From Candidatus Eiseniibacteriota bacterium (GTDB lineage: Bacteria; Eisenbacteria; RBG-16-71-46; CAZEPH01): DNA of 64,000 nt. Both the position numbers and the translations under genes were made by a program. The DNA is taken from contig JBGATO010000010.1 of NCBI GenBank assembly GCA_044229145.1, positions 10,022 through 74,021 on the forward strand. The letters are read 5' to 3'. The notes beneath the pieces were generated by a model. That model did not search any database, had not been told where the DNA came from, and saw only the letters and a program-made list of their open reading frames with translations. Shown here in pieces: positions 43,955 to 47,378 of the stretch (positions are counted from its first letter, which is position 1; each line of letters begins with the position of its first letter).

Positions 43955-45220
43955 CTAGATCTCTCGCCACGCGGCGATCCGGAACGGACCCAAGAAGTTC
44001 AGCTTGTTGAGAGTGGAACTCGAATAGGCGAGAACGGCATTGCCACTGTAGGTTTGGTCGAAACCCACACCGTTGGCCGCCATCATGGCGCCGTAGAGGT
44101 GCACTCCTTGCCCGCCTCCCGTGAAGTTCACGCTGCCGAGGCACACGATGGCCCCGTACCAGGTGAATTGCCCCGACACGTCGAGATTGCCCTGCACCAG
44201 CAGTACGCCGCCGCCGGTGTTGGTGCCCGAGAGGTGGAGGTCGCCCTGCACCTCGACGACGTGGTAGTTGTCGATGTCGCCCCAGCCGCCGGTGTCGGGG
44301 TTGTGCTGGGTGCTGCTATAGACAATATCGGCGAACTGGGCGTAGGTATTGAAGTACGCCTGCATGTCGAGATCGTAGGAGGCGTGCGCGACGTCCGGCG
44401 AGCTGCTCGCGCCGAGGATGTTGTTGGTCTGCTGCGGCTTGAGATCTGCGGTAATTTGCGCAGGGTCGCCGGTGGTAGTGAGTCCGTGGATCGGCGTGCT
44501 GCCCGGAATCGAGTCGCCGCTGGCCGGATCGGTGTCGTAGCCGGTGAGTTCGAACTGGGTGCCGTTGAACGTGAGGTCGGTGGTTTCGGTGTAGAGCGTC
44601 GCCGGCATCGGCGGAAACGGGATGTGCTGCACCGTCGACTGGATGACCTTGATCGCCGTCCCCACCTGCCCCATCGAGGTCACCACGTATTCGGGCGCGC
44701 CGGTGGTGGTGTTCTCCGTGTCGGCGGTGGTCGGATCGTGATCGCCATCGCCGTAGAACAGGATCTGGCCGGCGCCATTGCGCTTGTACTCGATGCGCAC
44801 CCACTTGTAGCCGAGGCCGGCGCCGGACTGCAGACTCAGCACTTCCGGCCAGTGCTCGCCGTTGTTGTCGATCGTGCCGTCGCCATCGTTGTCGAGGTTG
44901 TCGCTGGCCTGCGACGCGCGCGCCGGATCGAGCGCCGACTGCCCGCTGACGGACACGATGTAGTAGCCCCAGTTGTTCCCGGGCGGCGACGTGAAGTCGG
45001 CGAGACAGTTGGCGCCGGCGCTGATGTTGAGCCGCGCGATCGCCTCGTGCATGCCGGCTTCCGCGACGTACAGGGCCTGCGTGGCGCGCGTGTCGTTGCC
45101 GGCGATCTGCTGCTCGCTGGTCGACAGCAGCATGTAGGTGACGACCAGGATGCTGAGGCCGAAGAGCACCAGCAGCGTCGTCAGCATGGCGCTCCCGCGC
45201 CGGCGGTTATTGCGTGACAT
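43955..45220 (-). CDS. pilX: PilX-like minor pilin with extended C-terminus
   Basis: RRRG/SAMLTTLLVL (no E5), QALYVAEAG, DNLDNDGDGTID loop, C-terminal beta-solenoid-like repeats. Confidence 0.8.
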   Translation of the reverse strand: MSRNNRRRGSAMLTTLLVLFGLSILVVTYMLLSTSEQQIAGNDTRATQALYVAEAGMHEAIARLNISAGANCLADFTSPPGNNWGYYIVSVSGQSALDPARASQASDNLDNDGDGTIDNNGEHWPEVLSLQSGAGLGYKWVRIEYKRNGAGQILFYGDGDHDPTTADTENTTTGAPEYVVTSMGQVGTAIKVIQSTVQHIPFPPMPATLYTETTDLTFNGTQFELTGYDTDPASGDSIPGSTPIHGLTTTGDPAQITADLKPQQTNNILGASSSPDVAHASYDLDMQAYFNTYAQFADIVYSSTQHNPDTGGWGDIDNYHVVEVQGDLHLSGTNTGGGVLLVQGNLDVSGQFTWYGAIVCLGSVNFTGGGQGVHLYGAMMAANGVGFDQTYSGNAVLAYSSSTLNKLNFLGPFRIAAWREI

Positions 45221-47378
45221 AGGGATTCAGGTAGACGTCGATTTCGCCGCTCGTCGAGCTGATGGCGACGCCGACCACGATGTCGTTGAGGACGTCGTCG
45301 TCAGGATCGGTGACCGGCGCTTCGAGTTTGCCGATGGCGATCGCACTCACCGAACCACCGGTGACGCGGTCGGCCCAGCTCTCGGTCTGCGGAATGTAGT
45401 GGCCGCTCACCGGCGTCGAGTTCACGTACCACGCCTGGATCGCCTGATTCGACGTCCCGGCGACGATGTCGGGTACGCTGTTGCCGTAGTCGATGGTGCC
45501 CACCGCCACGGCGGTCACCGGGCCTTGCGCGAGCACGCCGTCGGTGTAGGTCAGGGTGCCGCTGACGTTGCGCCAGTACTCGACGCCGCCGACCGTGGTG
45601 TTCATCTTGTAGCCGACCACGACGTCGCTGTTGCCGTCCTGATCGATGTCGCCGGTTGCAATGCCATAGCAGCCCTTGTTCACCGTCAGGGTCGACGACG
45701 TGCCGCTGAACCACCCCCAGACGGACGAACTCATGCAGCGCACCTCGATCTTGCCGTCCGTATTGTTCGACTTCGCGGTGCAGCCGATGAGGTCACGTCG
45801 ACCATCGCCGTTGATGTCGGCGATGCACACGCCGTACACCGGATAGGTCGTCGTGTAGACGTCGGACGAGGTGTGCCAGAAGCCGCCGGATCCGGTGCCC
45901 CAGAACACCTCGAGCGCGCCGGTGGTGGTGCCCGTCTTGGTGCCGCACAACAGGTCGATCAGGCCGTCGTTGTTGAGATCCGCCATTGCCATCGCGCGCA
46001 CTTCTCCCGTGGCGCCGGGACTCGACGAGCGATAGTACGTGCCGTTAGGCACTGTCGCGGACGGGTACGAACCGCTGCCGATCACCCCGGGAGTACTGGT
46101 GTTGCCCTGATTCAGCCACGCCTGCACGGCGCCCGCGTTCGTGGCGCCCCGCTTCACGCCGGCGACCACGTCCGGGTAGTTCGCGGACGCGCCATCGAGG
46201 TTACCTGTGGCCAGCGCATAGAGGTCGTAGCTGGACGTGCCCGAGTACGCGTACACGTTCCGGAACAGCCCCCACCCGGTGTAGCCGTTCGGGAAGCCGT
46301 TCCAATACACGAGCAGGTTGTTCGCCGAGCCGTTCTTCGTTCCGACCACGATGTCGAGATCGCGCTGGTTACTGCTCGTGGTGAGCGAGCCTTCGAGCGA
46401 GTCGCGCTCGTTGGTGTCCACCAGGATCAGCGAGAGCACGTCGCTCGTCGGAATGCGGATCGGCGGCTGGTAATCCGGCAGTGAGTCGGTGCCGCTGCTG
46501 TCGGCGCCCCCCCCGCTTCCGCCCCCGCCACCACTGCCGCCTCCGCCGCCGCTCACCGGCGGATTCGACGCCGCCGTGATCGGGATATAGGGCACGGTCC
46601 GCGGCGACACCCGCGTGGTCAGCGACACCTGCTTGTATTCGCCCTGCGAGCCACTAGGCGACGGCGTCTCGGCGACGACGCGCAGCACGATGCTGGCGAG
46701 GGTCGGCGTGCGGCCGCTCCCGGCCGGCTTGCCGAGCACGGAATCGGGCAGCGTGGTGCCGTAGAAGCTGCTGGTGGCGTCGTTCGACGAGCCGGACAGC
46801 GCGGCGCCGGTCTTGGTGTAGTACGCGAAGAGCGGCGCGGTCGGCGTGCCGTTGCTGCCGGCGTTCTGCGTGATCGCATAGGCGACGACTTCGCCGCTGC
46901 CGCTGGTCGGCGTCGCGGCGGTATCGGCCACCGTGCTGGCGACGCGGCGGAGCACGCGGTCGCGCGGATTGCGCGTCGCCGCGACCACCGCGTCACTACG
47001 GTTCGAGTCGAGGAAGTACGTGATGCGCTCGCCGGTATCGATGTTGCCGTTCGCGTTGGCATCGACCACGAACGTGATGCGATACTCGCTCGCCACCTCG
47101 ATCGCCACGTGCCGCGAGTTGTCGAGGCCGTAGCCTGCCGAGCGCAATTCGCGCGACATCATGTCGAGCGCCACGCGCGCATTCTGCTGCGCCTCGGCGA
47201 TACCGAGACCCGCCGCCTGCGCTTTCTGGTCGTGCTCGTAGTAGAGGAAGATCACGCTGAGCACGACGGAGAAGACCACCAGCCCGATCATCAGCTCGAG
47301 CAAGCTGAAGCCGCGCCGGGCGCGACGATCGCGCCGGTGCATCACCGCGGAGAGGTGCGAGAGACGGAACGCGCGCAT
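45207..47378 (-). CDS. PilW-type minor pilin fused to an FG-GAP/VCBS-repeat beta-propeller (723 aa)
   Basis: RRG/FSLLELMIGLVVF, AQQNARVALDMMSRELRSAG, Gly linker, repeats DLNNDGLIDL, DINGDGRRDL, DIDQDGNSDV and others. Confidence 0.85.
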   Translation of the reverse strand: MRAFRLSHLSAVMHRRDRRARRGFSLLELMIGLVVFSVVLSVIFLYYEHDQKAQAAGLGIAEAQQNARVALDMMSRELRSAGYGLDNSRHVAIEVASEYRITFVVDANANGNIDTGERITYFLDSNRSDAVVAATRNPRDRVLRRVASTVADTAATPTSGSGEVVAYAITQNAGSNGTPTAPLFAYYTKTGAALSGSSNDATSSFYGTTLPDSVLGKPAGSGRTPTLASIVLRVVAETPSPSGSQGEYKQVSLTTRVSPRTVPYIPITAASNPPVSGGGGGSGGGGGSGGGADSSGTDSLPDYQPPIRIPTSDVLSLILVDTNERDSLEGSLTTSSNQRDLDIVVGTKNGSANNLLVYWNGFPNGYTGWGLFRNVYAYSGTSSYDLYALATGNLDGASANYPDVVAGVKRGATNAGAVQAWLNQGNTSTPGVIGSGSYPSATVPNGTYYRSSSPGATGEVRAMAMADLNNDGLIDLLCGTKTGTTTGALEVFWGTGSGGFWHTSSDVYTTTYPVYGVCIADINGDGRRDLIGCTAKSNNTDGKIEVRCMSSSVWGWFSGTSSTLTVNKGCYGIATGDIDQDGNSDVVVGYKMNTTVGGVEYWRNVSGTLTYTDGVLAQGPVTAVAVGTIDYGNSVPDIVAGTSNQAIQAWYVNSTPVSGHYIPQTESWADRVTGGSVSAIAIGKLEAPVTDPDDDVLNDIVVGVAISSTSGEIDVYLNPYVTQ
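46500..46560 (-). repeat. Gly/Ser linker-coding low-complexity tract
   Basis: Encodes SGGGGGSGGGGGSGGGADSS. Confidence 0.8.

Follow-up and report, generated by a model that had tools for sequence, protein, structure and literature searches.

Type IV pilins that carry a grafted adhesion module, the so-called modular pilins, form a well-documented class of wide occurrence (Raynaud et al. 2021, PNAS, PMC8179133). The 264 modular-pilin architectures in Dataset S1 of that study include the combination IPR012902-IPR013517, i.e. N_methyl with FG-GAP. For the PilB pilin of Streptococcus sanguinis, which bears a vWA module, a function as an adhesin is proven, and modular pilins are regarded there as probably exposed at the pilus tip. 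Here, a pilin of this class is described from a 64,000-nucleotide stretch of DNA, referred to as the window, of an uncultured Candidatus Eiseniibacteriota bacterium from sludge (assembly GCA_044229145.1, contig JBGATO010000010.1, positions 10,022 to 74,021 of the forward strand). Its gene lies in the minor-pilin operon of a type IVa pilus (T4aP) locus, and its product combines an IPR012902 module with an additional domain that is not specific to type IV pili (T4P), as in the definition of Raynaud et al. The principle is thus known, and the protein is a real and conserved example of a modular pilin, not a new type of machine. The first-pass annotation had presented it as an alternative tip architecture, a claim of novelty that fails because modular pilins, including N_methyl with FG-GAP, are already published. 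New aspects are the carrier (in a diderm T4aP, the pilin at the PilW/GspJ position), the swapping of modules on it across the phylum, the existence of stand-alone orthologues, the lack of PilY1 in genomes that have the fused form, and a link between the presence of PilY1 and the size of PilX.

Besides modular pilins, the closest described tip protein is PilC/PilY1, a non-pilin with a PF05567 propeller whose C-terminal strand completes PilX. This C-terminal propeller was treated as a carrier domain by Raynaud et al., whose Dataset S2 contains some PilY1 proteins with FG-GAP repeats as an N-terminal effector module. Regarding the FG-GAP propeller of the window as the counterpart of the C-terminal PilY1 propeller, as was done at first, is therefore not tenable. 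According to Ellison et al. 2026 (PMC13533445), a terminal beta-strand completes the PilK/PilX sheet and thereby licenses the tip complexes of type IV filaments (T4F). PilC/PilY1 provide this strand in trans, with their last ~10 residues and those of MshQ being proposed as the inserting strand, and in systems lacking PilY1 it is provided in cis by a PilK homologue that is often enlarged. In the library searched, no paper joins FG-GAP with a pilin and a type IV pilus, and a looser search returned general T4P papers only, in none of which FG-GAP occurs.

A pilin and a propeller in one conserved frame

The coordinates initially given for the gene, 45207-47378, are right, and its strand is the minus strand, where a single open frame of 723 amino acids (aa) starts from the ATG at 47378. 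A plus-strand reading of the same interval was rejected, its translation being riddled with stops. The gene comprises the following features.

45207..47378, minus strand: whole gene, a 723-aa modular minor pilin with prepilin leader, pilin module, Gly linker and FG-GAP propeller
47310..47378, minus strand: class III (prepilin) leader, residues 1-23, ending in RRARRG (PF07963, TIGR02532)
46593..47309, minus strand: pilin module, residues 24 to ~262, a long N-terminal helix and a beta-sheet domain in GspJ/PilW position
47028..47063, minus strand: EF-hand-like acidic loop D106-A-N-A-N-G-N-I-D-T-G-E117 in the pilin module, from a motif search
46467..46592, minus strand: flexible low-complexity linker, residues ~263-304, including GGGGGSGGGGGSGGG, with a predicted local distance difference test score (pLDDT) <50
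45210..46466, minus strand: predicted FG-GAP seven-bladed beta-propeller, residues 305-723 (Pfam FG-GAP_3 and FG-GAP, AlphaFold2, Foldseek)
45954..45980, minus strand: canonical Ca2+-loop motif DLNNDGLID, residues 467-475, with D467, D471, G472 and D475 invariant
45792..45818, minus strand: canonical Ca2+-loop motif DINGDGRRD, residues 521-529, with D521, N523, D525 and D529 invariant
45624..45650, minus strand: canonical Ca2+-loop motif DIDQDGNSD, residues 577-585, degenerate in more distant homologues
45216..45254, minus strand: conserved C-terminal peptide T-S-G-E-I-D-V-Y-L-N-P-Y-V, residues 709-721, from the alignment

The N-terminus, MRAFRL...RRARRG/FSLLELMIGLVVFSVV, shows the traits of class III pilins, namely a basic leader (MRAFRLSHLSAVMHRRDRRARRG) with a final Gly, Phe at +1, Glu at +5 and a hydrophobic N-terminal helix. 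Cleavage is predicted before F24 (RRARRG/FSLLELMIGLVVFSVVLSVIFL), with the Glu at mature position 5, and G23, F24 and E28 are invariant in the alignment of homologues (A1). Since the N_methyl model PF07963 (30.2 bits, cut-off 21.2, residues 18-44) and the GFxxxE prepilin domain TIGR02532 of NCBIfam (25.1 bits, cut-off 16.3) both match above their cut-offs, the class III signal RRG/FSLLELM noticed in the first reading is confirmed. The (G5S)n linker seen there was borne out as well: its core GGGGGSGGGGGSGGG, residues ~283-297, is (G5S)2G3. Among homologues, the linker varies and is rich in Gly, Thr or Ser, and both of its flanks are conserved in the alignment.

The C-terminal part is matched by FG-GAP_3 PF13517 (52.4 bits, cut-off 26.9) and FG-GAP PF01839 (36.8 bits, cut-off 22.1). 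A full-length AlphaFold2 model, built on a six-sequence alignment, has 28 strands between residues 307 and 716, corresponding to seven blades of four, and a pLDDT of mostly 70-90 over residues 306-718. A Foldseek search against the PDB returned ITFG2, integrin alpha-V and BBS propellers over ~430 columns with E-values of 1e-10 to 1e-9; for the best matches, the target template modelling score (TM-score) reached 0.62 at a sequence identity of 12-14%. Because of this 28-strand model and the propeller matches, the FG-GAP repeats are predicted to close into a seven-bladed propeller, which upholds the initial expectation. Of the roughly seven Ca2+-type repeats counted originally, three are canonical D-x-[DN]-x-D-G-x-x-D loops (at 467, 521 and 577), but the other four are degenerate. 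As judged from their motifs, the propeller loops may bind Ca2+. The C-terminal peptide contains nine invariant residues (T709, G711, E712, Y716, L717, N718, P719, Y720 and V721), and the last modelled propeller strand covers residues 711-716; a role of this peptide other than propeller closure is speculative.

A word-indexed search of 5.8 billion proteins yielded five relatives, all full length, with 39-76% identity and the same three Pfam families. An exhaustive search of cluster representatives returned the same small family together with fragments and generic FG-GAP proteins; pilin-only matches of 255-274 aa also came from this representative library, and stand-alone forms were verified in two genomes (G055 and G033). 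Among GTDB species genomes, relatives of full length (34-72% identity) occurred only in metagenome-assembled genomes (MAGs) titled Candidatus Eisenbacteria/Eiseniibacteriota or 'uncultured bacterium'. The relatives with a continuous frame include contigs of 1.0-3.4 Mb and a 2.7-Mb record titled chromosome. The phylum was sampled with 101 genomes; a profile of the pilin module detected strong orthologues in 36 of them, and at least 28 of these 36 have an open frame of at least 617 aa, with differing linker sequences. The full-length architecture is kept in homologues at 34-76% identity. As one continuous frame is retained over this range in independent assemblies, the fusion of pilin and propeller is judged to be genuine and not an artefact, and the single polypeptide of pilin, flexible linker and propeller proposed at the outset proves to be conserved.

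The minor-pilin operon and the absence of PilY1

The genes of the locus were named by Pfam match where present and otherwise by reading their translations. The genes around the modular pilin are the following.

47848..48390, minus strand: GspH/FimT/FimU-like minor pilin, first in the operon (GspH PF12019 33.5 bits, cut-off 21; N_methyl)
47378..47860, minus strand: PilV/GspI-like minor pilin, directly upstream of the modular pilin (N_methyl; TIGR02523 PilV and GspI weak, under their cut-offs)
43955..45220, minus strand: large PilX/GspK-position protein, 421 aa (PilX_N PF14341 34.9 bits, cut-off 25.5)
42833-43924, minus strand: PilM, next after the PilX_N gene
38961..43924, minus strand: pilM, pilN, pilO, PilP-like gene and pilQ secretin, directly downstream (Secretin 158 bits)
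50960..59832, minus strand: two major-pilin genes, PilR, PilS, PilC, PilT and PilB, upstream (read from translations; N_methyl on both pilins)

All genes of the minor-pilin operon are on the minus strand and share overlapping stop and start codons: the ATG of the modular pilin overlaps the pilV stop codon (TGATG), and its own stop codon overlaps the pilX start. The gene order confirms that the fimT-pilV-pilW-pilX cluster runs directly into pilM, as had been reported, and the locus is a complete T4aP locus including the PilT retraction ATPase. The same order, including the pilMNOPQ side, was found in a relative with 41% identity (locus L003), where matches to T2SSF, HisKA, Sigma54_activat and N_methyl parallel the upstream genes of the window. 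A motif scan of the genome revealed no second T4aP minor-pilin set in the assembly.

The PilY1 model PF05567 has no match in the locus and none above its cut-off in the 4.23-Mb, 164-contig assembly (89% complete), so that the absence of pilY1, noted first for the 21-kb locus, held in the locus and, by this search, in the genome. Two weak PF05567 matches elsewhere in the genome are not PilY1, one being an FG-GAP/fn3/FlgD_ig protein and the other a protein without a family. The modular pilin itself is not a PilC/PilY1 protein, as it is a class III pilin without a PF05567 match, and the same model recovers true PilY1 in 14 of the 101 genomes.

Position of the pilin module

In every relative inspected (L003, L051, L052, L056 and L059), the corresponding pilin, fused or not, occupies the third slot of the operon, in the order H-I-[target]-K. 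When refolded alone with AlphaFold2, the pilin module reached a pLDDT of 80.9 and a predicted TM-score (pTM) of 0.73, with a helix at residues 21-80 followed by beta strands. The single notable fold match in the PDB was Thermus TTHA1219 (5g23; probability 0.91, E-value 3e-3), a protein likened most closely to XcpW/GspJ by its authors. In NCBIfam, only PRK10557 of the PilW-type models was matched, below its threshold (26.6 bits, cut-off 120). The protein is consequently addressed as a minor pilin at the PilW/GspJ position and not as a demonstrated member of the PilW family: this naming follows from the operon position and a weak fold likeness, and the sequence models do not match. The label 'PilW-like' originally given to the domain agrees with the third slot of the H-I-J-K order, and the weak fold match leans in this direction, but no PilW/GspJ sequence model supports it.

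The EF-hand-like loop of the pilin module is a separate observation. Its residues D106, G116 and E117 are invariant across fused and stand-alone orthologues, and it may form a Ca2+ site in a GspJ-position pilin.

Comparison with described tip proteins

With the modular pilins PilB and PilC of S. sanguinis, the protein shares a class III signal, a pilin module, a linker and a bulky non-T4P domain, as well as a putative metal-dependent binding fold and a predicted display at the tip. It differs from them in its place, which is the GspJ/PilW slot of a four-gene core operon belonging to a diderm T4aP that includes PilT and PilQ, in its linker, which is long and Gly-rich where theirs is a short loop, and in its module, which is predicted to be a full seven-bladed propeller.

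The features in common with PilC/PilY1 are a large size, a beta-propeller, Ca2+ loops and, presumably for the protein described here, a place at the tip in connection with a FimU-PilVWX-type complex. Unlike PilY1, it is a pilin, and its FG-GAP propeller is attached covalently; the two forms do not co-occur in any of the 101 sampled genomes.

An extra domain on a tip subunit, placed inside the pilin fold or behind it, in a system without PilY1 is also known from GspK, Thermus ComZ, Caulobacter CpaL, CofB of enterotoxigenic Escherichia coli and TcpB of Vibrio cholerae. The first three of these occupy the K position (PilX/GspK), and the tips built from CofB or TcpB are homotrimers of the T4b type. 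In contrast to the K-position subunits, the extra domain is found here on the J-position subunit, and the K-position PilX is enlarged, too (421 aa).

The best fold matches of the propeller, integrin alpha and ITFG2, have seven blades and DxDxDGxxD Ca2+ loops in some of them. Unlike integrin alpha, the protein is bacterial, extracellular and located on a pilin, with neither a beta-subunit partner nor an I-domain.

Fused, swapped and stand-alone forms across the phylum

PilY1 was found in none of the 28 genomes with a fused frame and in 14 of the 73 others (Fisher p = 0.01, not corrected for phylogeny). In families f6 and f9, the sole PilY1-bearing genomes (G055 and G018, respectively) lack the fused form. 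A strong orthologue and PilY1 occur together in G055 alone, where the orthologue is a stand-alone pilin of ~270 aa with pilX directly after it. In G018, there is no orthologue; its canonical cluster consists of a GspH-like pilin, a different pilin of 216 aa in the PilW slot, a PilX of 148 aa and a PilY1 (vWA and PF05567). In G033, a four-gene operon encodes a stand-alone orthologue of 274 aa and a PilX of 426 aa, with neither propeller nor PilY1.

The PilX orthologues are colinear to their C-terminus, with an invariant W418, whether they stand beside a fused or an unfused pilin. Since the G033 operon does without a propeller and without PilY1, and since the C-termini of PilX remain colinear, the propeller looks like an accessory module and not like a required substitute for PilY1. 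PilX is ~420 aa long in clusters lacking PilY1 and 148 aa in the PilY1 cluster of G018. There are thus two types of cluster, one with PilY1 and a small PilX and one without PilY1 and with a large PilX. This suggests that the large PilX of the window is GspK-like and bears the licensing strand in cis, and by analogy its size and conserved C-terminus fit the cis type described in PMC13533445. A conserved acidic DNLDNDGDGTID loop is also present in the PilX of the window.

Different modules are attached to the PilW-position pilin in other families of the Eisenbacteria, namely fn3 with a DUF1080/3-keto-disaccharide-hydrolase-type domain (945 and ~940 aa) or CarboxypepD_reg with three SdrD_B domains and FG-GAP (~980 aa).

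L054:5238-8075, L055:4212-7601 and L056:6931-10050: swapped-module pilins at the PilW position, 940-1040 aa

Such a variety at one position is typical of module swapping in adhesins, and the comparison of the sequences points to frequent gain, swap and loss of modules on one carrier pilin.

Two observations concern the stand-alone forms. The orthologues of genus g18 (L051:5286-6278 in G055; P0067) have lost the canonical G/F-x-x-x-E motif (…AWTRTNVVAITVAIL…) and may be uncleaved or degenerating. G055 also has a separate PilY1 cluster.

Proposed role and alternative explanations

The reading considered best, with a probability of about 0.65, is that the propeller is a tip-displayed, Ca2+-dependent adhesion module on the PilW-position pilin, with priming carried out by the four minor pilins. 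The leader would be cut by a prepilin peptidase, for which a candidate enzyme is encoded on another contig. The N-terminal helix and the pilin module would then take the GspJ/PilW place in a four-pilin initiation and tip complex composed of the GspH-like pilin, the PilV-like pilin, the modular pilin and the large PilX. Because this complex would end up at the tip of the pilus, the propeller would be shown there on its ~40-residue Gly-rich tether, and its two to three integrin-type Ca2+ loops could support Ca2+-dependent adhesion to a surface, polymer or cell ligand. Priming would rest with the four pilins, the large PilX probably giving in cis the terminal beta-strand that is given in trans by PilY1 elsewhere. 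The two jobs of PilY1 would thereby be divided, with licensing going to PilX and adhesion to the module on the PilW-position pilin.

Several points speak against this interpretation. For the pilin module, the PilW and T2SSJ Pfam models did not match in any of 10 members, even at E-values up to 10, and a PDB sequence-profile search gave only chance matches to the helices of G-protein-coupled receptor fusion proteins. The fold match to TTHA1219 is weak (TM-score 0.31-0.41), and GspJ/XcpW were not themselves recovered. In the full-length AlphaFold2 model, the pLDDT of the pilin part is <50, which affects the placement of the two modules relative to each other. The anti-correlation with PilY1 is largely a clade-level pattern, and in five genomes of family f2, PilY1 is present alongside giant modular pilins. 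With a genome completeness of 89%, a PilY1 gene could also sit in the missing part. FG-GAP propellers are, moreover, known from enzymes and non-adhesive proteins, too. Finally, this candidate adhesin is known from genomes only, its host being uncultured.

The propeller might alternatively have another function than adhesion, such as the binding or processing of polysaccharides, the capture of secreted cargo in the manner of type II secretion, or the gating of the secretin. FG-GAP/VCBS propellers are diverse, the domain search yields many large multidomain FG-GAP proteins without known function, and the DUF1080/3-keto-disaccharide-hydrolase-type module at the PilW position elsewhere in the phylum hints at carbohydrate roles. 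A contribution of propellers to secretin gating has also been the subject of speculation by Ellison et al. (PMC13533445). However, PilT and the two major-pilin genes in the locus indicate a true pilus and not a secretion pseudopilus, and no catalytic family of Pfam or NCBIfam is matched by the protein. In addition, the module of the one modular pilin characterised by experiment, S. sanguinis PilB with vWA, is a binding module, and the PilC module belongs to a lectin superfamily. A role other than adhesion is therefore considered unlikely.

A different division of labour would follow if the protein were a full functional fusion of PilW and PilY1, whose propeller is needed for both priming and adhesion. 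In detail, its invariant peptide GEIxIYLNPYV would occupy the PilW/PilX interface as an inserted licensing beta-strand. In favour of this, few stretches of the protein are as conserved as its extreme C-terminus, PilY1 is missing from its genome as well as from all 28 genomes with a fused frame, and licensing as published relies on a strand added by the C-terminus of a large tip protein. On the other hand, the G033 operon is the same and has neither propeller nor PilY1. PilX is equally long and colinear with or without the propeller and about three times as long as the PilX beside a true PilY1, a pattern that matches PilK homologues with the strand in cis. In the model, the peptide is the last strand of blade 7, which is enough to explain its conservation. 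Such a functional fusion is regarded as decidedly unlikely, and the insertion of the peptide at the interface shares this low standing.

An even wider notion, which is highly doubtful, sees the PilW-position pilin of Eisenbacteria as a general carrier of swappable adhesins that replaces PilY1, with licensing, in the FG-GAP family, by the C-terminal peptide of the propeller. If true, the adhesin would be fixed at both ends in the core of the filament, as a covalent, load-bearing functional fusion of PilW and PilY1.

That pilin and propeller are truly separate proteins, brought together by an assembly, frameshift or gene-calling artefact, is extremely improbable, for even though the Logan contigs (short reads of four sludge and bioreactor metagenome runs) end inside the Gly-rich linker DNA at 46496-46565 without any of them spanning it, they contain no indel and no stop around the linker, and at least 28 genomes have frames of at least 617 aa with varied linkers. 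The read check proposed earlier accordingly showed neither indel nor stop on the two sides of the linker but did not reach across it. An apparent stand-alone propeller gene was also rejected. For 'Latescibacteria bacterium DG_63' (GCA_001302905.1, LJNC01000007.1), GenBank lists only a 414-aa propeller protein; this is a gene-calling error, as the frame L059:4915-7245 runs uninterrupted between the pilin leader and the final stop, with both halves joined by a (TG)n linker. Public annotation can hence split such a gene. The DG_63 MAG probably belongs with the Eisenbacteria.

If the tip-displayed adhesion module is the correct reading, the locus is a clean natural case of a T4P possibly doing without PilY1, in which an enlarged PilX appears to have kept the priming, with adhesion apparently transferred to a core minor pilin. 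The concept of the modular pilin is extended to the GspJ/PilW subunit of a diderm T4aP, and the known principles of pilus architecture are unchanged by the finding. Four forms, namely clusters of the fused, module-swapped, stand-alone and PilY1 types, are found within one uncultured phylum and offer a comparative test of the in-cis/in-trans model of beta-strand licensing. The propeller is a candidate factor for the adhesion of Eisenbacteria to flocs or surfaces; sequences of these bacteria were found in activated-sludge, sludge, wastewater and bioreactor metagenomes.

Further observations on the locus and genome

No pilD is present in the T4aP locus of the window; relatives have an A24 peptidase in the corresponding locus, placed between the gene of a ~225-aa protein and the GspH-like gene. 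The candidate PilD-like open reading frame (ORF) mentioned above, read from its translation only, lies at 5804-6610 of contig C121. According to the ORF translations, it is part of a type II secretion-like or T4F-like cluster (C121:5800-15600) with the PilD-like peptidase, a GspE/PilB ATPase, GspF/PilC, three pseudopilins, a PilM-N fusion and a secretin, and its prepilin peptidase is apparently the sole one seen in the genome.

Between the major and minor pilins of the window (48327-50877, minus strand), an ABC ATPase, an ABC-2 permease and the ~225-aa protein are encoded, an arrangement that is conserved in relatives and that corresponds to the pilGHI genes of Myxococcus xanthus. The two major-pilin genes stand in tandem (50960-52075, minus strand), and the mature N-termini of their products are identical (KGFTLIELMIVVLIIGILAAIAIPNFVAMQD).

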